A model generated the notes under the pieces. That model was not told the origin of the DNA. It saw nothing but the letters and a program-made list of their open reading frames with translations, and did no database searches. A program made the translations under genes and the position numbers. From Burkholderiales bacterium (GTDB lineage: Bacteria > Pseudomonadota > Gammaproteobacteria > Burkholderiales > UBA11063), in assembly GCA_020697255.1 (NCBI GenBank), contig JAJFBE010000007.1:93410-125409 (forward strand): a DNA stretch of 32,000 nucleotides, read 5' to 3'. Shown piece by piece: positions 4,501 through 32,000 of the stretch (position 1 is its first letter; each line of letters opens with the position of its first letter).

Positions 4501-6513
4501 GTGAATCCATTACTTCATAAATATGAATTTATTCCTTTTGGTAAATTTGATGTTAAGCAACTGGAAGAAGCTTTAAACAAGTTTCTCTCCCAGATTAAAG
4601 TGAATATAACGCAATTAGAAGAACTAAATAATGCTACCTGGGATCAAGTTAATCAGCTCTTGCACTCAAAACTTTATCAATTAAACCAATTATGGGGCCT
4701 TACCGGGCACCTATTGGCTGTGAATGATACTCAGGAATTGCGCGATTTACAAGCTAAATTTCAGCCAATTATCACTGAATTCTATGTAAACTTAGGGCAA
4801 AATGAAAAAATATATAAGCATTATAAACATATAAAAAAACAAGGATATGAAATGCTTGATGAGACTACTCGAAAAGTAATTGATAATGAGTTTAGAGAGT
4901 TCTTTTTAAGCGGAATTGATCTAAGCAAGACAAAAAAGGCAGCATTTAAACAAATCCAAAATCAATTAAGCCTGCTTGCTACAAAATTTGAACAAAACAT
5001 ATTAGATGCCACTGACAAATATTCTAAGCTCGTGACAATGGAACAATTACCAGGGCTTCCCAGTGATGTACTACAAATGCTAGCTTTCAATGCAACTAAG
5101 GATGGACATGATGGATTATATAAAATAAGCCTGCACTTACCATGCTACATCCCTATCATGCAGTATTGTGAAAACAGGGATTTACGTGAAGAACTTTATC
5201 GCGCATATGTAACCAGGGCCAGCGAGTTTGGCCCCCCCGAACTAGATAATACACAGCTAATTAGTAAAATATTACAGCTACGTCAGGAAAAAGCCAAGGT
5301 TCTAGGTTTTGGTGATTATACCGAGCTTTCCTTATATACCAAAATGGCTGAAAGCTCTAAACAGATACTAGACTTTTTATATCAACTGGCAGAAAAATCC
5401 AAAGCACATGCAACTAAAGATGTACATGAATTAAAAAATATAGCGAAAAAATTTGGTGTAACCAGCCTAAAAGCCTGGGATATAGCGTATTTTAGCGAAA
5501 AACTACAACAAGAAAAATATAGCTACTCTAATGATGAATTGAAGCAATATTTCCAGTTACCGGTTGTTATCGATGGATTATTTAAATTAATTAAACAGCT
5601 ATATAATGTGGATTTTGTGCCTAATAATGATATTCCAACCTGGCATAAGGATATGCAAACATTCAATGTAATAAAAGATGGTAAGAATATTGGTAATTTA
5701 TATATGGATCTCAGCGCTAGAAATGGTAAACAATCGGGGGCGTGGATGAACTCGGCCCGGGATCGCTTTACGTATGGCAGTAAAACCTTTACGCCACAAG
5801 CATATATCATTTGTAACTTTACACCGCCAATTAATAATATGCCATCCTTACTGACCTTTGATGAGGTGCAGACTCTATTTCACGAAATGGGACATGCACT
5901 CCATCATTTATTAACCCGAATTAACCATTTTGCCATTTCCGGTATTAATGGGGTTGAATGGGATGCCGTTGAACTCCCTTCACAATTTATGGAATATTTT
6001 ACCTGGAATTATCATATACTGCAAACTATAACCCGGCATATAAAAACTGATGAGGTATTGCCACTTGAGCTATATAACAAACTGCTTAAAAGCCGTCATT
6101 ACCAGTCTGGTCTACAAATGTTACGCCAGCTTGAATTTGCTATATTTGACCTGTCGCTTCACCAGGCGTTGAGTGCCGGGATTGACTATAATGCTCTACT
6201 TAATCAAATCAGGAAAGATATTGCTGTGATTATACCGCCAAAATATAATAGATTCCCTAACACCTTCTCGCATATATTTGCCGGCGGGTATGCTTCTGGT
6301 TACTATAGTTACAAATGGGCTGAAGTGTTGGCAACCGATATTTTTGCCGTGTTTGATGGGGCCGGTATACAAGAATATGCTCGCCTGGGACAAAAATTTT
6401 ATGAAAATATCTTATCTGTTGGTGGGTTAAAACCAATGCTGGATAACTTTAAATCTTTTATGGGTCGGATTCCACAGGTTGATGCGCTCTTAAAGTACTC
6501 AGGAATTGAGTAA
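4501..6513 (+). CDS. prlC: Oligopeptidase A (M3 family zinc metallopeptidase)
   Basis: 670 aa. Zinc motif FHEMGHALHH (HExxH) and end-to-end M3/OpdA-like sequence (e.g. YASGYYSYKWAEVL). GTG start preceded by GAGG at 4491-4494. Confidence 0.9.
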   Translation: MNPLLHKYEFIPFGKFDVKQLEEALNKFLSQIKVNITQLEELNNATWDQVNQLLHSKLYQLNQLWGLTGHLLAVNDTQELRDLQAKFQPIITEFYVNLGQNEKIYKHYKHIKKQGYEMLDETTRKVIDNEFREFFLSGIDLSKTKKAAFKQIQNQLSLLATKFEQNILDATDKYSKLVTMEQLPGLPSDVLQMLAFNATKDGHDGLYKISLHLPCYIPIMQYCENRDLREELYRAYVTRASEFGPPELDNTQLISKILQLRQEKAKVLGFGDYTELSLYTKMAESSKQILDFLYQLAEKSKAHATKDVHELKNIAKKFGVTSLKAWDIAYFSEKLQQEKYSYSNDELKQYFQLPVVIDGLFKLIKQLYNVDFVPNNDIPTWHKDMQTFNVIKDGKNIGNLYMDLSARNGKQSGAWMNSARDRFTYGSKTFTPQAYIICNFTPPINNMPSLLTFDEVQTLFHEMGHALHHLLTRINHFAISGINGVEWDAVELPSQFMEYFTWNYHILQTITRHIKTDEVLPLELYNKLLKSRHYQSGLQMLRQLEFAIFDLSLHQALSAGIDYNALLNQIRKDIAVIIPPKYNRFPNTFSHIFAGGYASGYYSYKWAEVLATDIFAVFDGAGIQEYARLGQKFYENILSVGGLKPMLDNFKSFMGRIPQVDALLKYSGIE

Positions 6514-6580
6514 AATTATATTTGCCAGTTTTGGTCATACATGATAAAATAAGAACTGACATAATGTACTTCCAAACAAG

Positions 6581-6619
6581 CCTGTAGTAGATTATAAATA
6601 CTTAATGATCTACTATAGG
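6581..6619 (+). terminator. Candidate stem-loop downstream of prlC
   Basis: cctgtagtagat (6581-6592) pairs with atctactatagg (6608-6619): a 12-bp stem with one G-U pair and a 15-nt loop. The following T-tract is only modest. Confidence 0.35.
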
Positions 6620-6662
6620 CTATTTGATACTATTTTCATCAGATACGGGACCCTTGCTAGTT

Positions 6663-8594
6663 ATGAAAACTCTACCCAAAATTAAATTTACCAGTTATTT
6701 ACATTTATCAATCTTTACAATAGGAATTTATAGCTTTAGCGTGACAGGTTTAGCCCTTAGCAACCTATCAACACCAGTTTATACTTCTGCATCGGCTGCC
6801 ATAAAACTTGATAAAACAAATTTTGGCGGGGGTTTTGTCCTGGAAGACTGGTTCTTTGCCCGGGATACTGTTGGTCATAATGTGTCATCAACATGTGAAG
6901 AAGCAAAAAATGGGGGCGTGGGTAGTAGCCAGGTATTTATTGGGAATGCCCTGGTAAAACAAGTAGCGGACTTCACCTGGACCTCTGAAACCGATTTAAT
7001 TAAAAAATTGTCTGGTCATGGTTATTCTCCAGAAGATATTGAAAAGATTTTCCAATACCATCGTGATACATATTTGGGTAAAACCTTAGAAAATAATGAA
7101 GTAGTATTCACCAAATTGCGTGAGGCTAAAGCCACCGGCATAAAAATAATACGTCTACCAATAACCTGGGCAATACAATATGACAAATCATATACATTTA
7201 CTAAGCCAGATGGACAGGTAGTTACCCTACCTGCGGAGTACGACATTAAAGGAAACACTATAGCTAATGTTCCTAAAAGTAATGGCAATGTCCAGCTAAT
7301 TCAGGATCCTTTTTATTCGGATAAAAAATGGGCAAGTATCCCAATTAGCCAGATCGAAGCAGTTTTAAAAGGAGCAAACCAACTTGGAATGCAAGTTATC
7401 CTGGATGTACATGCATTTCCGGGTGGCTCCAGTGATGGCACATACAATGGAGTTTGGCCTGATGCCCCAAGGTTTTGGCTGCCTAAAAAAGAAGTTTATC
7501 AAGCTAACTTCAGGGCTATTTTTGATAGGCTGGTTGCCTGGGCAAGTGACTTAAAAGAAACCGACCCTGCCGCATTCGCGGGGTTAGCCGGTCTAACACC
7601 AATGAATGAGCCAGCCCATCTTATGGGGTTTTTGGAAATATCCAAAAATGAACCGTTACTTTCAAAAAAACCTGTATGTAGCGCTACTGACAGCACCGGC
7701 AAAATTATATCCTGGGGAGTACAGCCAAAAGATGTGCTAGATACATTGGCTCTTGCAGTAGAAGATTTTAGGGCATCAGTATTATCGAAAACGCAGGTAA
7801 AATTAGTTATGAATGTAATTGAAACCATGTATAACCCCAATGACTATAATCCAAAAGATCAAAAAACGTACCCATTTAGCCTTATAGGAAACTGGTGGTT
7901 GGGCATAACCAGCCCTGAAGAGCGGAAAGTGTGGGCTGCTGTAGATATTCATCACTATGTGGCCTGGGATGGCGGTTGTAATAATGTCCTAACAGCAAAG
8001 CATCCACTATACAACCAAACCGGTGACCTGCAATGGAATGATCCGGGCGTATGGAAGAGTCCGATTTTTGAAAAAGATAGCTCAGGTAAAACAATCCTGC
8101 AATATGCCATAAAAAATCCCGATGGAACTTATACAATTATAGATAATGATAATTTTAATAAAACGTATAAAAAAACTGATGGTACGCTTTTTGTAGACAA
8201 TCGAAATGGCTTTGCCCAGATTAAAGCTTGTAGTACATGGTTTTTGAATGTACGTAGAGAGCTTGGAATTTTAGATAATAACGAGCTGGTATTTGCCAGC
8301 GAGTTTAGTGCCGGAACCAATTCTGATTCTTGGAAATCTGGCTCTAGCGGACGGGCACTTAATAACAATAAGCCTATAACTATTACAAATTTTGATACCT
8401 ACCGTAATACCTTCCTCGAGGCACAGGTTAAGAATGCTGCGGAAGCAAGCGTAGAAGCTATTTTCTGGACATGGAAGATCGAAAATAATAACTTTTCAGA
8501 CTGGAGCCTGTCTACTATATGTAATAGTGCTAAAAAACCAAGTGTGTGCGGCGGCAATAGCAATGCTAATGCCAATAGCTATCCTGCCTATTAA
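6663..8594 (+). CDS. Secreted glycoside hydrolase family 5 (beta-glucanase / exo-1,3-beta-glucanase-like)
   Basis: GH5 landmarks occur in order: IIRLPITWAI, VILDVHAFPGGSSDG, LTPMNEPAH (acid/base Glu), VDIHHYVAW, VFASEFSAG (nucleophile Glu). The track start is TTG at 6624. ATG at 6663 gives MKTLPKIKFTSYLHLSIFTIGIYSFSVTGLALS, a signal peptide, so it is preferred. Confidence 0.8.
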   Translation: MKTLPKIKFTSYLHLSIFTIGIYSFSVTGLALSNLSTPVYTSASAAIKLDKTNFGGGFVLEDWFFARDTVGHNVSSTCEEAKNGGVGSSQVFIGNALVKQVADFTWTSETDLIKKLSGHGYSPEDIEKIFQYHRDTYLGKTLENNEVVFTKLREAKATGIKIIRLPITWAIQYDKSYTFTKPDGQVVTLPAEYDIKGNTIANVPKSNGNVQLIQDPFYSDKKWASIPISQIEAVLKGANQLGMQVILDVHAFPGGSSDGTYNGVWPDAPRFWLPKKEVYQANFRAIFDRLVAWASDLKETDPAAFAGLAGLTPMNEPAHLMGFLEISKNEPLLSKKPVCSATDSTGKIISWGVQPKDVLDTLALAVEDFRASVLSKTQVKLVMNVIETMYNPNDYNPKDQKTYPFSLIGNWWLGITSPEERKVWAAVDIHHYVAWDGGCNNVLTAKHPLYNQTGDLQWNDPGVWKSPIFEKDSSGKTILQYAIKNPDGTYTIIDNDNFNKTYKKTDGTLFVDNRNGFAQIKACSTWFLNVRRELGILDNNELVFASEFSAGTNSDSWKSGSSGRALNNNKPITITNFDTYRNTFLEAQVKNAAEASVEAIFWTWKIENNNFSDWSLSTICNSAKKPSVCGGNSNANANSYPAY

Positions 8595-8710: not shown

Positions 8711-9427
8711 TTAATTACTATCTGAATCCGAACCTGTATCTGTATCTGTATCCGAACCTGTATCCTGATCTAGATCTTTAATATAGAAAGGAAGTGCTTT
8801 ATTTATCAAAAAATTATGTTCATTGTCTGCATCGTTAGGCTCATAGTATCCTACTTTGTAATTAGTTATTTTTAGCTTACACTGAAACCAGATCCCACTA
8901 CTACCGGAGATTTTTTCAGCACGGGGATTGCCATCACCATCGAAAGACATTGTAAAAAAACCCGTAGCTCTCCAGTATTTAGGGGAAAGTTTACTTTGTT
9001 CCAGCTTTGAATCTGCTGGGTATATATATCCTGACGTAATAGTACTTGTTATAGGATCTGCATTACCAAAATACCCCCCCTTATAGTTAAATATATTAGG
9101 ATAATAAAAGTTGCTTTTTAAATTCGAACCCGAACATTTTTCTAAAGGGGTATTAGCTGCCCAACATGACAAATATATGTACCTAACTATATGTTTCCCT
9201 TCTTTTCTACCTATAATTTCCTCCTGGTTTTGTTCCACTTCCCATAAATTGGTAATGCTTGGGTCATTTATAACCCTTTTTTCGCCATTTGCATATTTTA
9301 TTGTAATTTGCTGTGGAATAGGCTTGCAAAGTAAATGTTCATAAGTTTTTATTTCAGCTATACATACACATGGTATAAACGTAATAAATAAACCAGATAA
9401 AAAACTTTTTAAAGATAATTTTTTCAT
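8711..9427 (-). CDS. Secreted hypothetical protein with an acidic D/T/S/G-repeat C-terminal tail
   Basis: Start re-set to ATG 9427 (MKKLSLKSFLSGLFITFIPCVCIA/EIK, a signal peptide); the track start at 9535 adds 36 non-signal residues. The C-terminus is DLDQDTGSDTDTDTGSDSDSN, encoded by a gaacctgtatc-type DNA repeat at 8714-8770. The blocks FQCKLKI...KALPFY may be distantly related to the six-cysteine family. Confidence 0.6.
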   Translation of the reverse strand: MKKLSLKSFLSGLFITFIPCVCIAEIKTYEHLLCKPIPQQITIKYANGEKRVINDPSITNLWEVEQNQEEIIGRKEGKHIVRYIYLSCWAANTPLEKCSGSNLKSNFYYPNIFNYKGGYFGNADPITSTITSGYIYPADSKLEQSKLSPKYWRATGFFTMSFDGDGNPRAEKISGSSGIWFQCKLKITNYKVGYYEPNDADNEHNFLINKALPFYIKDLDQDTGSDTDTDTGSDSDSN

Positions 9428-9601
9428 TTCACATCCTAATAAGAAAACACCAATATCAATTAGATAAATATTTATAATTATACCATTTTCCAGGGATTTC
9501 TGCTGGCCTTTCATTTTTACAGCATAGAGGAACACTTTATGTCATCCTCGGACTTTTTCTAGGGATCCATAATGCTTATAATAAATTTGGATTATTAAAA
9601 A

Positions 9602-12403
9602 TTAAGCTATATTCTTAATTCTGTTATCATCGGTTTTTAAAATAACAGTCAGATATGGCGGAATGATAGCAGGATCAATTTCTTCGCCAGTTAGCATTAC
9701 CAAATTGGTAAATCCCTTTTTGTTTAATTTTTTTGCTATTTCTATCCCATCCCCGATATATTTAGGTTTTAGGCCCCAATTTTCGGAATAAAAATGGTCA
9801 AGCACAATTTTGGTATTTAACGGATACTGCTCTACATCCTCAAGAAAAACATTCGGATTACTGTACATATCAACTTTTAGATGCGGGAAAAAGCGCTCAA
9901 CATACCCATGTACAAAACCCAAATCATCATCGACACATACCATGTCTACTTTTTTACTGCCTTGCTTTATTTGTTTATCCACATTTATGGCAACAGCAAA
10001 AACTAGTTCTTTCGGCAGGATTTTAACTCCTAGATTCGCAGCTCTTTCACGTATTTCAATATTATCATAGTGGCTTGTGACCAAAGTAGAGCGTTTAATA
10101 TTAATTTGCTCTACTACCTGTAACCCATTTATACCATGGTTTAATAATTCATAATCAGTTAACATACAAACTTTATCTCTCTCTTTGACAGATAAAGAAT
10201 TTATAAAATTAATAACATCTACGCCTTTAGTAAAATGTTTTATTGTAAGGCTATCTGATAATTTAGCCAAAATAGGTTCAAATTTCGAGTCCCAGGTACC
10301 ATGAATCGAATCATCGTCATCTAAAACTATTATGGTATCGCCTTTGATGATTTTAACCTCTTCTGCGATCCAACCTGGTGATGGAATTTTAGGTAGCCTT
10401 AACATAATCGAACTACACTCTCCCTCAGTAGAATGTATTTTAAACTCCCCGTAATTACGTTTTAATGTTTCACGAACCTGCGTTAGACCAATTCCGTGAC
10501 CATCCTTCTTACCTGAAGTAACACTAAAATTTCCCTCTATTTTATTAATTAATTCCTGGGACATGCCACAGCCGTTATCTTCAATAAAAACATTTATCCA
10601 GTCAGGTATAATATTAAGCTCAACCTTAATTTTACCATCTGGTTTGTCACCTAGTGCCTGAACCGAATTATTAATAACATTAGAAATCATTCGTTTAAAC
10701 TGCCCCGGTTCTACCTGAGTAAAAGAAAAATAGGCATTTAGCGAGAAATCAGTCTCGATAATAATATTTTTATGTTCAAACCGCTTTTCACTCACGACTT
10801 CGCTTAAAGCCGTTGATACTAGCATCGATTCTGCCAGCTCGTTATTATTTACTTCTTTTTTATAGCTGCCAAGCATATGGCTGGCAATAGCGCTAATACG
10901 CATTGATGCCTGACGTAGGGTGATACGTTTTTGCTCCGGCATAATACCTGCCGTATCCTCTACTATCCCGCGCAGGCTGGCTAGCGGCGATTGAATATCA
11001 TGTACCATCTGCCCAACTATTTTTCTAAACTTTTCCTGCTCCTCTGCAGCAGCTGCAGCCTTTTGTTTTTCATTTTCTAATTTTTGTAATTCATTTTCTA
11101 GTCTAAGGCGTTCTGTTTCTTTTTCTGCCGCCTCTTTTTCTAAAAGCATTTGCTTCATTTTATTTTCTGCTTCTAGCTTTCGGTTCTCATGTTTTAAGCG
11201 TTCAGCTTCTTTCAAAGCAATAAGCTTTTCCTTTTCAGCTAAAGTAGCTTTACTTGCCTCATTTTCAAACTTTAACTGCTCTGCTTCTTTTTGTGCAGTT
11301 ATATCAATTGATATACCAACGAGTCCTATTATTTCTTTATTGCTATTATAAAGAGGGACTTTATTTGACAGAAATACTCCTTGCTTACCATTAGGTAAAT
11401 TCCCAGGTTCTTCCAGTGAAACAGGATTCCCACTCATAACCTCCCAATTAGCCTGATCTAGCTCAGTAACTAATTGATCAGCGCCCTTATTCCAGGGTAA
11501 ATCTTTATTTCTCAACCCAACAATGTCTTTTCTTGATCCAAGCCCGGCTGACTTTGCCTGGTTATTATTGCAACCCAAATAAACACCATTTGTATCTAAC
11601 CAGTAAACATGGCCAGGCATAATAGCAATTATATTTTCCAACATTTCCAAATATTCTTTGTCTTTGGTTAAATCATTAATACTGTTAACGCTGTCAAATA
11701 TCCGGGGCTTAAACTGATCCGCATGTCTAAACCTAATTGTAGCAGGATGTAATAACTCCGGATACTTTGGCAATACGAATTTTTTATGTGTTGCACTCAT
11801 AGCCTCATTTCTAGGCCCTGGATAAACTTCAAATTGACAATTCAAGGATGTCCATAAACATAATGCTGCGCATTCCTCGGTTAAATAAGCCATAGAAAGC
11901 TGCTTAGCACGGCTTATGTTAAAATTACTATCAGGGCTAGATCTTTTTCTCGATTTGTCAACAAAATTTTCTACAACTTTATCAAATTTAGCTTTATAAG
12001 CCGGATCGGTTTTTATGGCCTCTCTAATCATATTATTGTGCTGTTTGAAGTTGTCATGCTTAAGCCATTGGTCCCAATGTAATATTTTATAAGGGATAGT
12101 TAAGCTATCATAATATTGTTTATTTCTCTGCAACCAATTCCTACCTTCCAGTATTGCTAAGTTATAATAATCATCTGGAGATTTATCACTATTTAAGGCC
12201 ATAGTATAACGTTGTAAGCTATCATCAACTAAAATAATACATGATTTAAAAGATTTATTAATTAGGTCAATTGTCAGCTTAAAAAGCTCTCCTTCGTGCA
12301 TTTCTTGCCCCACACTAATAGTTAAAAGACAGGCAGAGTCAGCAAATTGTGCTTTTTGCTCTAAACTAATATTTTTAAATGCAATTTTTATTTTATTTTC
12401 CAT
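9602..12403 (-). CDS. Cytoplasmic hybrid sensor histidine kinase: cyclodipeptide-synthase-like N-domain + PAS + coiled coil + HisKA/HATPase_c + two receiver domains
   Basis: 933 aa with no TM segment. PAS at aa ~245-370. E/K-rich coiled coil at ~372-460. H-box VH468DIQSPL, N-box NVINNS, G1 EDNGCGM, G2 GHGIGL. REC1 has DD695/696, D750 and LVTS; REC2 has VCVDDD, D869 and MLTG. For the N-terminal 235 aa see the findings. GGAG lies 11 nt upstream of the ATG. Confidence 0.85.
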   Translation of the reverse strand: MENKIKIAFKNISLEQKAQFADSACLLTISVGQEMHEGELFKLTIDLINKSFKSCIILVDDSLQRYTMALNSDKSPDDYYNLAILEGRNWLQRNKQYYDSLTIPYKILHWDQWLKHDNFKQHNNMIREAIKTDPAYKAKFDKVVENFVDKSRKRSSPDSNFNISRAKQLSMAYLTEECAALCLWTSLNCQFEVYPGPRNEAMSATHKKFVLPKYPELLHPATIRFRHADQFKPRIFDSVNSINDLTKDKEYLEMLENIIAIMPGHVYWLDTNGVYLGCNNNQAKSAGLGSRKDIVGLRNKDLPWNKGADQLVTELDQANWEVMSGNPVSLEEPGNLPNGKQGVFLSNKVPLYNSNKEIIGLVGISIDITAQKEAEQLKFENEASKATLAEKEKLIALKEAERLKHENRKLEAENKMKQMLLEKEAAEKETERLRLENELQKLENEKQKAAAAAEEQEKFRKIVGQMVHDIQSPLASLRGIVEDTAGIMPEQKRITLRQASMRISAIASHMLGSYKKEVNNNELAESMLVSTALSEVVSEKRFEHKNIIIETDFSLNAYFSFTQVEPGQFKRMISNVINNSVQALGDKPDGKIKVELNIIPDWINVFIEDNGCGMSQELINKIEGNFSVTSGKKDGHGIGLTQVRETLKRNYGEFKIHSTEGECSSIMLRLPKIPSPGWIAEEVKIIKGDTIIVLDDDDSIHGTWDSKFEPILAKLSDSLTIKHFTKGVDVINFINSLSVKERDKVCMLTDYELLNHGINGLQVVEQINIKRSTLVTSHYDNIEIRERAANLGVKILPKELVFAVAINVDKQIKQGSKKVDMVCVDDDLGFVHGYVERFFPHLKVDMYSNPNVFLEDVEQYPLNTKIVLDHFYSENWGLKPKYIGDGIEIAKKLNKKGFTNLVMLTGEEIDPAIIPPYLTVILKTDDNRIKNIA

Positions 12404-13143
12404 AATATTATGCTCCGCTATGCTAAATTAATACTCTTTTACAAACTAGTACTTGGTAAAGTATTTATATTTTATAATCAGGATAATAATGAATTAATAT
12501 GTTATCGTGTCTTACTAACCTATGTATTACAAGTAATATGTTTATTACATCAAACCCTATAAATATTAGTAATGAAATGCTTTGCACATTTTACCATTTT
12601 ATAAGTTTCACTATTTGTGGAATAAACAATATAGCATTTATAAAAACACCAATTCCTATTATAAATTCTATAATATTTACGAAGGAACGCATACATAGTC
12701 CCGATATGGTAATTATTTACAATTGTTTTTAAAGACAAGCATATAGGTGGATAAGAATAATTTTCTATTATAGCATGTTGATAAATTTGTGTAACTATTT
12801 TATTTAGTATAAGCAATTGTATAAATATGACTCCAAATTTAGCAATTTCATTTTTTAAGTAGATATAGTTTAATAACTGCCTACACATATAGATGTTTAT
12901 AAGGTTTGTGAAAAACCTGGTAATTATATCCTCATAAACATAATGAACATTGTATAATTGTAGTCTAATTCTGAGTAATATAGTTAACTTTTTTGTGGCT
13001 TATATAAAATTATATATTATCATATTATTTTATTGAAGTTATAAAGTTTAACGTATTTTATATAACCTGCTCGTTTAATTATCTTCTTATTATAACTTCA
13101 GTATAAAATTATTTTAATTTTTTGTTATAAGAGAGAATTTTAA

Positions 13144-14508
13144 ATGACGCTAGCGCAAAATAGTTCATTAGATAATGTTAAACCCCTTACAGGGTATGAA
13201 GTTTATAAAACATTACTCCTAGTAAACCCTGAATTAGCTAAATGTATAAAAAATTACATTACTAATGATGAAATAATTGCTTTTAAAGCAAGCTACCCTT
13301 TTGGCAGTAAAATCATTAAGAATCGTGAAGTATTCTTACCACTTGATAACGGTGAAAGCATATCGTTTAATGATCAAAGGTTACCCTCATTATTACGTGA
13401 ACATCTGAGCTATAATCCAGGAGTTAATAATCCAGTCGGAATAATTTTAAGTAAAGACTCTGAATTTTATATGCAGCATAACGACCGTGTTGAATCTTAT
13501 CAAATAGTATCCCCGGGACATTTAATTGGTTTTGCACATATCATGGACAGTGTTGCATCACCCAAAAATCCCAAAGTTCAGAAAAAAATATATATTTCTG
13601 ATTTAGATTTGGATGCAGGCGCTAGGTTACTTTTTATGCTGGCTAATATATCTAATAGCCAGCAACATAACAATTTACTGGAAGCATATGGAATAAATAT
13701 TGCTAAACCTACTGATTATATGCAGCAATGCAATATTTTTAGAGCAATTAGTAATAGTGCACCGTCATGGGCACAAGATATTATATTTTTTTCAAATAAA
13801 TTTTCAAATGAATTAATCATAGACCCAACAAAGAGAGAACTATATGCACAATTTAGCCATACCCATCGTTCGGCTTATACTGTATGGCATTATGCAATTC
13901 GTACCTGGGATAGTGAGATCAACAGGATAATGAGTGCAACAGGAGCAAATGATTATTCGTCTTATGCTGTAAATATTGCCAAACATTTATTTTTAATTGC
14001 TATCGGCGGCGCTCCTGGTTTTGCCCCGGTAATTGACGACAGAATGTGCCCAAAATCACTAATAGAAGAAGCATATACAACCAAAGGATATGGCTTGACA
14101 AGACAATGGCCTACTCTTATGCAGCCAGAGATATTTAATTTGGAAAACAATCAGCCGGTTTATTACTCACCAAATTTATCTACGTTATTTAACTTTAACC
14201 CGGAAACATTTAAAGGTAAAACAGTTATCGATCTTCTGGATAAGGTATTAACTGTTGTCAACTTATGCCAAAATTATGTATTAAAGAACTTAAAAAGCAA
14301 AGAATCATATTTATATGACATTATGAAAAGCGTGAAATTTTCTTTTTATCACAGTAATCCCGATCCTGAAAACTTTAGCCGGGAGATTAAGAATAGTCTA
14401 CTGCTACCTGAAGAAGACGCACGATTTCATAAACATGGCTGGGTTTTCCCTAACCTAAGCCATTTTGTACGTGGATGTATCAAAATTGAGCCAATAAGTA
14501 ATGCATAA
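13144..14508 (+). CDS. Hypothetical protein (454 aa), no recognisable family
   Basis: Long uninterrupted ORF with normal amino-acid composition. A GAGAG purine tract lies ~9 nt upstream of the ATG. No signal peptide or TM segment. It is divergent from the hybrid kinase gene. Confidence 0.6.
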   Translation: MTLAQNSSLDNVKPLTGYEVYKTLLLVNPELAKCIKNYITNDEIIAFKASYPFGSKIIKNREVFLPLDNGESISFNDQRLPSLLREHLSYNPGVNNPVGIILSKDSEFYMQHNDRVESYQIVSPGHLIGFAHIMDSVASPKNPKVQKKIYISDLDLDAGARLLFMLANISNSQQHNNLLEAYGINIAKPTDYMQQCNIFRAISNSAPSWAQDIIFFSNKFSNELIIDPTKRELYAQFSHTHRSAYTVWHYAIRTWDSEINRIMSATGANDYSSYAVNIAKHLFLIAIGGAPGFAPVIDDRMCPKSLIEEAYTTKGYGLTRQWPTLMQPEIFNLENNQPVYYSPNLSTLFNFNPETFKGKTVIDLLDKVLTVVNLCQNYVLKNLKSKESYLYDIMKSVKFSFYHSNPDPENFSREIKNSLLLPEEDARFHKHGWVFPNLSHFVRGCIKIEPISNA

Positions 14509-23830: not shown

Positions 23831-24391
23831 TTAATGCTTGAAAACTGAATCTAAATATTCTTCTTCTTTTAGTCTTTCTTTAATTGCAGATATCTGTTCT
23901 TTATTTTTGCCTATAGCTAGCAATAACTCTTCAACTGTGATTGGATAAGCTGAACCATTGGGGTCTTTCCACTCAGCACAATAATTATGAGTATAATCTC
24001 TAATTTGCCACTGATCCATTTCACCGTACTTTTCCCAAACATGCTCTAATACTTCAATATCTGATGTACTTAATTCGTTTAATTTTTCAAGTGGAAATTT
24101 TGCCTTGCTTTTTTTAAGTCCGAGTAAATGATTTGCTCTATCCGTAATCCAGCTATTCCAACCATTAATGCTTGATTTTTGTTCACCATCCATCAATTCT
24201 TTAGTTCTGGATAACACTGGTCCGTGAGGTAATGAATAAAATTTATCACCTGAGATAGAACATTCAAAACGGGCAAAAGATTCCCTCTCTGATAAGTATA
24301 GTAATTTCATAAGTTTTAATAGATACATGCTTCCCCCTTCTTTTTGTAGAAAGAAAGCTGCCATTTGGGTTGCTTTAAGCTCATTGAACAT
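23831..24391 (-). CDS. Panacea-domain (DUF4065, SocA/GepA-like) protein, putative antitoxin
   Basis: LLKLMKLLYLSERESFARFECSISGDKFYSLPHGPVLS matches the DUF4065 core pattern (KLxKLLY..E....G.....F.....GPV). Start re-set to ATG 24391, with GGAG (24402-24405) 10 nt upstream; the track start is TTG 24409. Confidence 0.7.
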   Translation of the reverse strand: MFNELKATQMAAFFLQKEGGSMYLLKLMKLLYLSERESFARFECSISGDKFYSLPHGPVLSRTKELMDGEQKSSINGWNSWITDRANHLLGLKKSKAKFPLEKLNELSTSDIEVLEHVWEKYGEMDQWQIRDYTHNYCAEWKDPNGSAYPITVEELLLAIGKNKEQISAIKERLKEEEYLDSVFKH

Positions 24392-24465
24392 TTTACTATT
24401 ACTCCGCAAATACTTGCAATGCTAAATTTTAGATCTTTGTAAAAATATGTTACGCATACGTCATA

Positions 24466-30586: not shown

Positions 30587-31558
30587 TTATTTAATTTTTT
30601 GATCGCCACGGAATTTTTCGAATTCCTCGCGATGACTTGTGGGATATTTTGCCATGATTTCTCTAGCGCCATTTTTATACAATTCTTCCAAACAATTATT
30701 AACCATTTCCTCATGTTTGGATTTATCTAGCTGTACCCGGCTGTAAGAGCAACGATTATCTACTACATCCCATAAACAGGCTGTCAAACATATTTGGTTG
30801 TCAGTACTTTTAGCATATACGGCTATTGGTACACTACAGCTTGCACCCAACCTACTACCAACCATACGTTCAATATCTACTTCAAACCTAGTCTCTTTGT
30901 CTTCCAGAGGCTTCAAATAATCAATCAAATCAGTCCCGGAACTTAAAACTTCAATTGCTAAAGCGCCCTGGCCGATAGATGGCAAAAATTTATTAGTATC
31001 CAATTTTTGGGTAATTCTATCAGATAACCCAAGGCGTTTTAAACCGGCAACAGCTAAAATAATTGCATCATATTCTTCTTTGTCCAATTTACCCAGCCTG
31101 GTTTGGACATTCCCACGAAGTAACTTAATTTGCAGTTGTGGATAATGTTGTTTTAATAGGGCAACGCGCCTGGCCGACGAAGTACCAATTACTGCACCTC
31201 CTGGCATAGCTTCAAGACTTGAATATTTATTTGATACGAAAGCATCTGCTGCATCTTCCCTTTTTAGGATGGCCGCTAACTTAAATGTAGGATCTAATGC
31301 CGCTGGTAAATCTTTTAGCGAATGAACTGCAATATCTGCCGTATCGGCAAGTAAGCCACTTTCTAACTCTTTAATAAATAATCCTTTGCCACCAACCTTA
31401 TCCAGTGTTTTATCCAGTATTTTGTCGCCACTGGTAGTCACCCCGATGATTTCAGTTTGTAAACCTGGATGATGTCTTAGCAATTCTTCTTTTACAAAAT
31501 TTGCCTGCCAAAGAGCAAGCTCACTCTTACGGGTAATTATTCTTATCTTTTTATACAT
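30587..31558 (-). CDS. hemC: Porphobilinogen deaminase (hydroxymethylbilane synthase)
   Basis: IRIITRKSELALWQA, GGKGLFIKELE, VHSLKDLP, and the cofactor-Cys region GASCSVPIAVYA. It carries a ~25-aa C-terminal extension. Confidence 0.95.
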   Translation of the reverse strand: MYKKIRIITRKSELALWQANFVKEELLRHHPGLQTEIIGVTTSGDKILDKTLDKVGGKGLFIKELESGLLADTADIAVHSLKDLPAALDPTFKLAAILKREDAADAFVSNKYSSLEAMPGGAVIGTSSARRVALLKQHYPQLQIKLLRGNVQTRLGKLDKEEYDAIILAVAGLKRLGLSDRITQKLDTNKFLPSIGQGALAIEVLSSGTDLIDYLKPLEDKETRFEVDIERMVGSRLGASCSVPIAVYAKSTDNQICLTACLWDVVDNRCSYSRVQLDKSKHEEMVNNCLEELYKNGAREIMAKYPTSHREEFEKFRGDQKIK

Positions 31559-32000
31559 AATTAACCTTAACTATTTGCGGTCTTAAATTTACTGCTGTAC
31601 GACATATATAACCATATCCCGGTTTTAAACTCCTTATTTTACTACCATCTAAGATATACTCATCATTTAAATTTGTAGTCACCCGTCTATCCCCGTTATC
31701 ACTAATGCTATGTAGACTGTACTTAGCCTCTTTCCCAATAGTTTCTTGCAATAATCTTATATCATGCGCATCATTAATCTTATGGATAATAAATGTATTA
31801 CAATTAGCAATTAGCTCTACAGCAATTCGCCTCACCTGCTGACTTTCTTCCGAAATAGCATGAATTGATTGCGTACCGATTACTGCGTGCATACCATTAT
31901 CCCGCTGCATAGCCAGGATATTTGACATGTTGGGGCTTGCATATGCAGCAAATTCATCAAAAATACAAAACGCTTTGACTGATTGCCCGCTTCTACCCAG
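31551..32000 (-). CDS. TraD/TraG/VirD4-type (type IV coupling-protein-like) P-loop NTPase, C-terminal part; the gene continues beyond the right edge
   Basis: The frame is open to nt 32000. Manual translation upstream of the track ORF gives ..LGRSGQSVKAFCIFDEFAAYASPNMSNILAMQRDNGMHAVIGTQS.. It has a Walker-B-like hhhhDEF, an R..G...V..TQS block and NCNTFIIHKINDAHDIRLLQETIG, typical of the TraG/TraD C-terminal region. The stop overlaps the hemC start by 8 nt. Confidence 0.55.
   Translation of the reverse strand: MGRSGQSVKAFCIFDEFAAYASPNMSNILAMQRDNGMHAVIGTQSIHAISEESQQVRRIAVELIANCNTFIIHKINDAHDIRLLQETIGKEAKYSLHSISDNGDRRVTTNLNDEYILDGSKIRSLKPGYGYICRTAVNLRPQIVKVNYV

Follow-up and report, generated by a model that had tools for sequence, protein, structure and literature searches.

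The 32,000-nucleotide stretch of Burkholderiales DNA analyzed here (contig JAJFBE010000007.1, positions 93,410 to 125,409; hereafter the window) encodes, on its minus strand, a soluble protein in which a cyclodipeptide synthase (CDPS) domain is fused to a PAS domain, a coiled coil, a histidine kinase core, and two receiver domains (Table 1). The open reading frame (ORF) comprises 933 uninterrupted codons, begins with ATG, and is preceded by GGAG 9 nt upstream of the start codon. Pfam recognized PAS_4 at amino acids (aa) 266-372 (34 bits) and HATPase_c at aa 568-672 (57.7 bits), and a Kyte-Doolittle scan detected no transmembrane (TM) segment in the protein. The same 933-aa sequence was found, identical, on 4 contigs. 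It is labeled as a hypothetical protein of a Burkholderiales metagenome-assembled genome (MAG) in NCBI and as a signal transduction histidine kinase in JGI, and its closest named relatives are Aquella. An earlier inspection of the letters without database searches (the sequence-only reading) had described this ORF as a CDPS-like domain joined to a cytoplasmic PAS, histidine kinase, and double-receiver protein lacking TM segments. The architecture is borne out by Pfam, hydropathy, and a fold model and Foldseek search of the C-terminus, and every motif that had been named lies where it was placed: S30 in TISVGQ, Y173 and E177 in YLTEE, Y194-P195 in EVYPG, H468 in VHDIQSPL, the N, G1, and G2 boxes at 575, 608, and 635, D750 in MLTDYE, and D869 in IVLDHF.

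Table 1. Coordinates of the fusion gene, its predicted parts, and other features of the window (positions are those of the window).
Feature	Residues (aa)	Position	Strand	Details
Whole fusion ORF	933 aa	9602..12403	(-)	CDPS - PAS - coiled coil - DHp/CA (catalytic ATP-binding) kinase core - REC1 - REC2; soluble
XYP-type cyclodipeptide synthase domain	1-235	11699..12403	(-)	Catalytic S30, Y173, E177, Y194; XYP signature Q33/Y194/P195; P1 LTLDWALE, P2 VNFKGRN
CDPS-PAS junction	236-254	11642..11698	(-)	Basic C-terminal tail of stand-alone type (KPxxF) kept, then short linker into PAS N-cap helix; direct reading
VqmA-like PAS domain (PAS_4)	255-375	11279..11641	(-)	Hallmark motif PGHVYW..GCN; K348 at VqmA K101 position; predicted ligand-binding
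E/K-rich coiled-coil linker	376-455	11039..11278	(-)	Three KE[AT]E[QR]L..EN repeats
DHp (phospho-acceptor) region	456-530	10814..11038	(-)	H-box MVHDIQSPL, H468 (codon 11000-11002)
HATPase_c catalytic ATP-binding domain	568-672	10388..10702	(-)	Pfam 57.7 bits; N, G1, G2 boxes at 575, 608, 635
Receiver-fold domain 1 (REC1)	688-805	9989..10342	(-)	D695, D696, D750, T776/S777, K798
Receiver-fold domain 2 (REC2)	820-933	9605..9946	(-)	D825, D826, D869, T905, K923; no output domain after
PQ-loop (SemiSWEET-like, 3-TM) pseudogene		12465..12692	(-)	228 bp, directly upstream of fusion gene; in-frame TAA after ...IPQIVKLIKW; third TM lost by deletion/frameshift
274-aa neighbor		8711-9535	(-)	No Pfam match
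AT-rich intergenic stretch		12900-13140
454-aa divergent neighbor		13144-14508	(+)	No Pfam or PDB match
SocA/Panacea antitoxin-domain gene		23831-24409	(-)
125-aa TraD/TraG fragment		31551-31928	(-)

PDB sequence, profile, and fold searches with the N-terminal domain were unequivocal. With aa 1-240 as query, phmmer retrieved from the complete set of PDB sequences cyclodipeptide synthases only, the best being 5OCD (E = 1.2e-55, aa 5-227) and the second the CDPS of Nocardia brasiliensis (5MLQ, E = 1.7e-28), and a profile built from 40 CDPS homologs retrieved 5OCD at 4e-83 and the N. brasiliensis enzyme at 6e-45. According to their PDB titles, 5OCD is the enzyme of Fluoribacter dumoffii and 5MLP that of Rickettsiella. 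The AlphaFold2 model of the domain had a mean predicted local distance difference test (pLDDT) score of 94.1, and Foldseek aligned it with 5OCD at a TM-score of 0.88-0.95 and a root-mean-square deviation of 1.4 A. All CDPS structures, including AlbC, YvmC, and Rv2275, ranked first, with XYP enzymes nearest, and tyrosyl-tRNA synthetases followed only after them. This agrees with the class-Ic aminoacyl-tRNA synthetase-like Rossmann fold that the sequence-only reading expected, and its assignment of the first ~235 aa to a CDPS thus holds at the level of both sequence (phmmer and profile) and fold.

In the N. brasiliensis enzyme (Nbra-CDPS), S34, Y172, and Y194 are the counterparts of S37, Y178, and Y202 in AlbC, and the XYP subfamily is defined by X40/P203 in place of N40/H203 (PMC13062777, a 2026 structural paper). 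A HMMER alignment places S30, Y173, E177, and Y194 of the fusion protein on S34, Y172, E176, and Y194 of Nbra-CDPS, with P195 in the Pro column of the XYP enzymes. Because these residues fall on the catalytic columns, the AlbC equivalences given by the sequence-only reading are confirmed, and the domain can be classed as an XYP-type CDPS; the subfamily call agrees with both Q33/Y194/P195 and the nearest structures. Among the 40 homologs, the columns of S30, E177, and Y194 are invariant, and that of Y173 holds Tyr in 27 and Phe in 13; the 13 with Phe at the AlbC Y178 equivalent are stand-alone homologs and include CDPS 32, itself reported inactive. K232, P233, Q234, and F236, which belong to the tail retained at the junction with the PAS domain, are nearly invariant among stand-alone homologs. 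Collectively, the alignments and the structural model indicate that aa 1-235 is a real XYP-type CDPS with intact catalytic residues, from which the formation of a cyclodipeptide from two aminoacyl-tRNAs is predicted.

The pocket motifs P1 and P2 were located by transferring published positions, a transfer validated by its reproduction of the motifs listed for CDPS 33 and CDPS 32. CDPS 33, which is the 5OCD sequence, makes only cyclo(Gly-Gly) (cGG) (Jacques/Gondry). P1 of the fusion protein matches CDPS 32 at every position and resembles P1 of the cGG synthase closely, and its P2 is unique. Since P2 differs from that of the cGG synthase, the product should not be assumed to be cGG.

The PAS domain that follows belongs to a family whose best match among solved structures is an autoinducer receptor. 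A profile built on 25 PAS domains, drawn from CDPS-kinase fusions and from the first PAS of the partner kinases described below, matched VqmA in the PDB (6UGL, 6KJU, and 6IDE) at E = 5e-11, with the next PAS at 8e-6. Both 6UGL and 6IDE are Vibrio cholerae VqmA with its bound autoinducer DPO (3,5-dimethylpyrazin-2-ol). The VqmA ligand is held by F67, F99, and K101, where K101 hydrogen bonds the ring carbonyl and the K101R substitution abolishes binding; the site also accepts a linear dipeptide-like compound. In the fusion protein, VqmA K101 corresponds to K348 (Lys in 25/25 of the family), D85 to E332 (an invariant Glu column), F67 to L315 (Leu, Ile, or Val), and F99 to S346 (Ser in 24/25).

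Evidence for the putative phospho-acceptor (DHp) region consists of the H-box with H468, of NCBIfam kinase models that align from aa ~461 and of a weak Pfam HisKA match (E = 0.07 in the fusion protein and 7e-4 in its ortholog P0124). The last 253 aa yielded no Pfam match, to Response_reg or any other model, and nothing meaningful in a single-sequence phmmer search of the PDB, and a profile search gave weak receiver matches in the second half only. A model of this region built on 22 homologs (pLDDT 93.3) is a tandem CheY-like pair, and Foldseek matched it to the tandem receivers PleD (top) and 3LUF across both halves as well as to dozens of single receivers. Two receiver domains were assigned because this fold prediction settled the matter where sequence searches were weak or empty. 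Among the 22 homologs, D695, D696, D750, T776, S777, K798, D825, D826, D869, and K923 are invariant or nearly so.

The internal E/K-rich repeats that had been noticed in the translation can be traced in the DNA, where the coiled coil contains three 29-nt copies (11094-11122, 11184-11212, and 11262-11290; 72% identity) that encode KE[AT]E[QR]L[KR][FHL]EN. These repeats resemble the 'DIT.QKEAE.L..EN' end of each PAS unit in the multi-PAS relatives P0123 and P0124 and, judged by this resemblance, may be leftovers of deleted PAS units.

The fusion is not confined to the window. Full-length orthologs (P0122, P0124, and P0125) comprise 863-988 aa and share 65-81% identity in the CDPS domain, and orthologous fusions at 57-81% identity exist. 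A second group of fusions (P0131 and P0123) carries CDPS domains only 31-35% identical to those of the first group and closer to stand-alone enzymes, and a third fusion is encoded in a Thiotrichales MAG (L017, 1791-3507), where Tyr-Thr takes the place of Tyr-Pro. An exhaustive HMMER search with aa 1-400 against 1.84 billion cluster representatives identified at least 20 clusters at 50% identity with a single contiguous alignment across the CDPS and PAS domains. Ten of these clusters were scanned with Pfam: nine encode PAS and kinase domains in several orders and one had no Pfam match. The orders include CDPS-PAS-HisKA-HATPase-REC, PAS-CDPS-PAS-HisKA-HATPase-REC, and PASx3-CDPS-PAS-HK-REC. In P0361, P0366, P0367, P0376, and P0398 the CDPS is embedded between PAS domains, for example with three of them ahead of it. 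All 20 CDPS-PAS clusters keep the catalytic Ser/Tyr/Glu/Tyr and nearly all keep the Pro, and the pocket motifs vary widely. Two of the CDPS-PAS fusions have NCBI accessions, are labeled only 'ATP-binding protein', and include one from a Rickettsiaceae MAG.

The diversity of domain orders suggests that a CDPS was inserted into sensor kinases several times, and we count at least three independent CDPS-kinase fusions from these sequence comparisons. When the fusion protein is compared with its ortholog P0122, the CDPS (dN 0.10, dN/dS 0.07) and PAS (dN 0.07, dN/dS 0.06) domains are the most constrained and slowest-evolving parts, with dN of 0.42-0.50 and dN/dS of 0.19-0.30 in the CA and receiver parts. 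Related proteins include P0234 (759 aa), in which two PAS domains are joined to a very divergent CDPS-like domain with Asn for the catalytic Ser. Kinases of the PAS_4 family considered here are also fused to other enzymes, namely a nonribosomal peptide synthetase module of C-A-PCP-thioester reductase type (P0147, Aquella sp., 1614 aa, partial) and a GNAT acetyltransferase domain (P0139, 837 aa), which suggests a wider habit of joining small-molecule-forming enzymes to these kinases.

Nearly all of 203 CDPS-domain homologs are stand-alone proteins of ~240 aa, many of them encoded on contigs that also bear kinases matched by the full-length protein, and in three stand-alone contexts a PAS_4 kinase gene begins 3-37 bp past the CDPS stop codon. 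We surveyed this linkage with one genome per GTDB species, yielding 48 loci, mostly from Legionellales, Coxiellaceae, and unclassified Gammaproteobacteria, of which 46 could be assessed. A kinase of this family lies directly downstream on the same strand in 38/46 loci (median gap 13.5 bp), is adjacent in another orientation in 6/46, and is fused to the CDPS in 1/46; a single locus (1/46) has no kinase. The CDPS and a family kinase are therefore adjacent or fused in 45 of the 46. Both the cGG synthase gene of F. dumoffii and its Legionella jordanis homolog stand tail-to-tail with a PAS_4-PAS_4-HisKA-HATPase-REC-Hpt kinase (823 aa in F. dumoffii), and the CDPS 32 gene has a PAS_4-PAS_4 kinase 36 bp downstream. 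In 10 loci, the gene after the kinase encodes a single-domain response regulator. A mirror-tree test of the distance matrices of the CDPS and PAS domains revealed a positive correlation (r = 0.60, 38 pairs, Mantel p = 5e-4).

Plasmid p-ren of the sponge endosymbiont Candidatus Endohaliclona renieramycinifaciens (L061 = MK748464.1, 33 kb) encodes at 5938-8578 a CDPS (QCC21406, 'hypothetical protein') and a kinase (QCC21405, 'putative sensor histidine kinase'), and the same plasmid bears the renieramycin genes RenA and RenB. MAG MFD00731.bin.1.206 holds five copies of the CDPS-kinase cassette (L023, L029, L031, L045, and L048) in multi-kb segments at 80-93% DNA identity, with one or two of the five CDPS copies apparently split. 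Some cassettes occur in plasmid-like or mobile contexts, including L002 (RepA_C, ParA, and ParE/PhdYeFM nearby) and a 142-kb contig (MobA/MobL and TraD).

A third component of the cassette is a small membrane module. Eighteen of 28 inspected partner kinases start with a conserved ~90-aa 3-TM segment (motif ALFINALLFIPQ) that passes the Pfam PQ-loop threshold, and the remaining ones are cytoplasmic. Overall, the module is present in 33/49 loci, fused to the kinase in 22 and encoded by a separate neighboring ORF of ~95 aa by the CDPS gene in 11. Fusions of the PQ-loop 3-TM segment (motif ALFINALLFIPQAIKIF) to PAS-PAS-kinase are found at L001 (1458-3251), L002 (4821-7523), L003 (4280-6823), and 19 other loci. 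Dimerization of a PQ-loop kinase would complete a SemiSWEET-like bundle. A full-text literature search for SemiSWEET with histidine kinase returned no report of kinases fused to a PQ-loop module. In the window, the module survives as a relic that contains the PQ motif and, when conceptually translated, reaches 22.2 bits on PF04193 (cut-off 22). Over 46 aa, the relic shares 72% identity with the intact PQ-loop gene (99 aa) located upstream of ortholog P0122 (L053, 6344-6643).

Apart from the PQ-loop gene, no flanking gene is conserved among the fusion orthologs, no upstream RNA elements or tRNA genes were found when looked for, and promoter and terminator scans performed no better than on shuffled sequence. 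Membership in a biosynthetic gene cluster was considered and rejected: the 32-kb window lacks genes for a cyclodipeptide oxidase, a P450, a methyltransferase, or any other tailoring enzyme, and the surroundings are chromosomal housekeeping genes (parAB, gidB, prfA, hemA, ftsK, and hemCDXY). The 274-aa neighbor has a hydrophobic N-terminus and an acidic DTGSD-repeat tail, and neither it nor the 454-aa neighbor is conserved beside orthologous fusions. Between the PQ-loop relic and the 454-aa gene lies a very AT-rich intergenic stretch (27% G+C in the 12001-13000 bin). Farther away, the SocA/Panacea gene sits within a sugar-transferase/aminotransferase cluster, and the 125-aa fragment, which matches the C-terminal domain of TraD/TraG, adjoins hemC.

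Given an intact CDPS, a VqmA-like PAS domain, a kinase core with two receiver folds, repeated fusion, near-obligatory linkage, and a membrane module, the simplest mechanism would be one in which the CDPS makes the ligand of the PAS domain. We lean, with modest confidence, toward the reading that the protein probably both makes a signal and receives it, as the single-chain form of a conserved cassette of CDPS, PAS histidine kinase, and PQ-loop module. The N-terminal domain would take two aminoacyl-tRNAs and release a cyclodipeptide (2,5-diketopiperazine), the nearest characterized enzyme being one that makes cGG, and the adjoining PAS domain would bind that cyclodipeptide in the pocket containing the invariant K348. 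As motifs and fold suggest, signaling would then run from synthase to kinase, with the bound ligand switching the kinase and the phosphoryl group moving from H468 to REC1 (D750) and perhaps onward to REC2 (D869) or an unlinked partner. In relatives, the PQ-loop module would likely provide a route for the cyclodipeptide across the membrane, making the cassette a cell-to-cell signaling system; in the window, with its PQ-loop gene decayed, the molecule would have to diffuse passively or act inside the producing cell. The sequence-only reading had raised the idea of a signal synthase/sensor fusion, and the genomic context described above strengthens it as a hypothesis.

A number of observations weigh against this interpretation. 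The Pfam CDPS model PF16715 did not match aa 1-240 or the full protein, even at E = 10, and NCBIfam TIGR04539 scored aa 21-180 at only 27 bits (E = 2e-6) against a cut-off of 45. The profile match proposed as a check of the CDPS assignment was thus absent for Pfam but strong for the PDB, family-profile, and fold searches, and because the latter are unambiguous we ascribe the miss to the low sensitivity of the model. CDPS 32, the only tested member of the clade and one with the same P1 motif, was reported inactive in Escherichia coli. Ligand binding by the PAS domain is deduced from ~25% identity to VqmA, and the aromatic stacking pair F67/F99 is not kept, being Leu and Ser in the fusion protein; retention of the carbonyl-binding Lys with loss of the stacking pair is what a non-aromatic diketopiperazine ligand might lead one to expect. 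Co-inheritance by itself would account for the correlated divergence of the CDPS and PAS domains, and the mirror-tree test does not distinguish it from coupling through a ligand. No HPt or output domain is present in the fusion protein, and no HPt, output domain, or DNA-binding regulator is encoded nearby in the window, where the decayed PQ-loop gene also no longer specifies an intact three-helix bundle. Finally, covalent attachment of a synthase to the receptor of its product would favor self-stimulation, which is a poor fit with classical quorum sensing.

Other explanations assign the parts different roles. It is possible, but unlikely, that the PAS domain and kinase sense an unrelated cue such as redox or a host metabolite and control the activity or expression of the CDPS, with the cyclodipeptide being an effector or defense chemical and not the ligand of the kinase. 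Such sensor-controlled biosynthesis would accord with the biosynthetic partners of known CDPS fusions, with the position of the cassette beside renieramycin genes on the Ca. Endohaliclona plasmid, and with the many carriers that are intracellular or host-associated lineages. However, the CDPS sits N-terminal to the DHp region, where the input modules of sensor kinases lie, and sometimes between PAS domains; the window encodes no tailoring enzymes with the CDPS; the PAS domain is specifically VqmA-like and keeps the ligand-binding Lys; and allosteric control of a fused enzyme needs no kinase core. We regard as rather unlikely the proposal that the main role of the CDPS is to bind particular charged tRNAs and thereby report their availability to the kinase, by conformational coupling or through a strictly intracellular cyclodipeptide messenger. 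The cytoplasmic protein, the decay of the PQ-loop gene in the window, the covalent coupling of CDPS to receptor, and the retained basic C-terminal tail of stand-alone CDPSs (whose role in tRNA binding is putative) are all compatible with it, but every fusion examined retains the full set of catalytic residues, for which pure binding would have no need, the PQ-loop module in two thirds of related loci suggests traffic across the membrane, and the pocket motifs differ greatly from one fusion to another, in line with diversification of a signal. A related possibility, to which we assign a similarly low likelihood, is that in the soluble fusion without a transporter the cyclodipeptide does not signal between cells and is instead an intracellular second messenger, such that the CDPS would turn the supply of particular aminoacyl-tRNAs into a diketopiperazine read by the PAS domain of the same chain. 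If true, this would wire a phosphorelay directly to the charging state of tRNA, and the wider cassette of PQ-loop module, CDPS, and PAS kinase would be the first dedicated synthase, receptor, and conduit system for diketopiperazine signaling.

A purely regulatory neighborhood is a further alternative, which we consider improbable. Here the kinase would act through a response regulator to control transcription of the CDPS operon, the two would have no ligand in common, and the fusions would have arisen neutrally, by chance joining of neighboring genes. Genes only 0-50 bp apart do fuse easily, and 10 loci have a single-domain response regulator after the kinase, but neutral accidents would not readily account for at least three independent fusions, including insertion of the CDPS between PAS domains, for the strong purifying selection on the CDPS and PAS within the fusion, or for retention of the fusion in at least 20 diverged clusters. 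The chance that an assembly or frameshift artifact joined two genes is negligible. Although the source is a MAG, the reading frame is continuous, the linker is conserved, and orthologous fusions occur in independent assemblies, and we rejected this explanation on the basis of the identical protein on 4 contigs and the at least 20 fusion clusters.

The proposal that cyclic dipeptides serve as bacterial signals is decades old, but a synthase and a receptor dedicated to such a signal are not known to have been established as a pair; the reports we found rest on LuxR-type proteins or on indirect effects. The locus is a genetically defined candidate for such a pair. It combines a synthase that depends on tRNA with a candidate receptor kinase, the PAS domain of which has a known autoinducer receptor as its nearest solved relative, and relatives add a small membrane module that could transport the molecule. 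The fusion acts as a Rosetta-stone link between the parts of the cassette. Since the cassette is present in culturable Legionella and Fluoribacter, with F. dumoffii and Legionella maceachernii among the cultured carriers, including beside an enzyme of known product (cGG) and structure, the hypothesis is directly testable. Curated CDPS models miss this clade, and in the databases checked the fusions are labeled 'ATP-binding protein', 'hypothetical protein', or histidine kinase; genome-mining surveys for CDPSs will therefore have overlooked fusions of this clade.

The sequence-only reading knew of no described example, which agrees with the searchable full-text literature. No report of such a fusion emerged there when CDPS was combined with histidine kinase, PAS domain, two-component, and autoinducer or receptor. 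Only stand-alone CDPSs are reported by Aravind (2010), and the described CDPS fusions have P450, methyltransferase, and ABC-transporter partners only (Gondry et al., 2018). The closest prior remark is a single sentence on the recurrence of PAS domains within 2.5 kb of CDPS genes, with the suggestion that the products might be quorum-sensing signals (Skinnider, 2018), a study that mentions neither kinases nor fusions. In a 2026 review of quorum sensing, the diketopiperazine receptors cited are all of LuxR type. The components are of known kinds, and the architecture and the three-part cassette appear to be undescribed in the literature searched.

Among characterized enzymes, the F. dumoffii CDPS (Fdum-CDPS; CDPS 33, WP_010654411, 5OCD) is, like the CDPS of the window, an XYP enzyme of the same fold, with 39% identity, identical catalytic S/Y/E/Y/P, a similar P1 pocket (LPLDWVME versus LTLDWALE), and a tie to a PAS_4 hybrid kinase, in its case through a neighboring gene. 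Unlike the fusion, it is a stand-alone protein of 257 aa, its kinase is a separate convergent gene, and its P2 differs (NDFRSRN versus VNFKGRN). CDPS 32 (EKD46099, ACD_69C00020G0002 = P0012) is closer in sequence, with 52% identity, an identical P1 (LTLDWALE), and a linked PAS_4-PAS_4 kinase, but it is stand-alone, has Phe at the Y178 equivalent, and was reported inactive in E. coli. The CDPS fusions described previously resemble the one in the window in that an N-terminal CDPS of ~240 aa runs into a second functional module, and the isolated CDPS part of CDPS 71 is active (Gondry et al., 2018). They differ in being NYH enzymes joined to tailoring or export domains, whereas here an XYP enzyme is joined to a signal-transduction chain.

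On the sensory side, VqmA resembles the PAS domain of the fusion as the best PDB match of the PAS family, in the conserved ligand-binding Lys, and in being a cytoplasmic receptor, and its ligand is a six-membered N-heterocycle derived from amino acids, a likeness to the proposed diketopiperazine. Unlike the fusion, VqmA has a DNA-binding helix-turn-helix output and not a kinase, and its stacking F67/F99 are Leu/Ser here. DPO synthesis needs threonine dehydrogenase, and the DPO synthase is not known to be linked to the VqmA receptor. The C-terminal 253 aa resemble in both domains the PleD-type tandem receiver (REC-REC'), their top Foldseek match. PleD continues into a GGDEF output and its second receiver is without acceptor function, whereas both receiver domains of the fusion keep Asp/Thr/Lys and nothing follows them. 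The LqsA-LqsS system of Legionella and the CqsA-CqsS system of Vibrio likewise place an autoinducer synthase gene beside that of its cognate sensor kinase, which feeds a phosphorelay. LqsA and CqsA are pyridoxal phosphate-dependent alpha-hydroxyketone synthases and LqsS and CqsS are six-TM membrane receptors, and, to our knowledge, pairs of this type are always two proteins and never one chain. The fusion differs from them in combining a tRNA-dependent synthase and a cytoplasmic PAS sensor, both in one chain.

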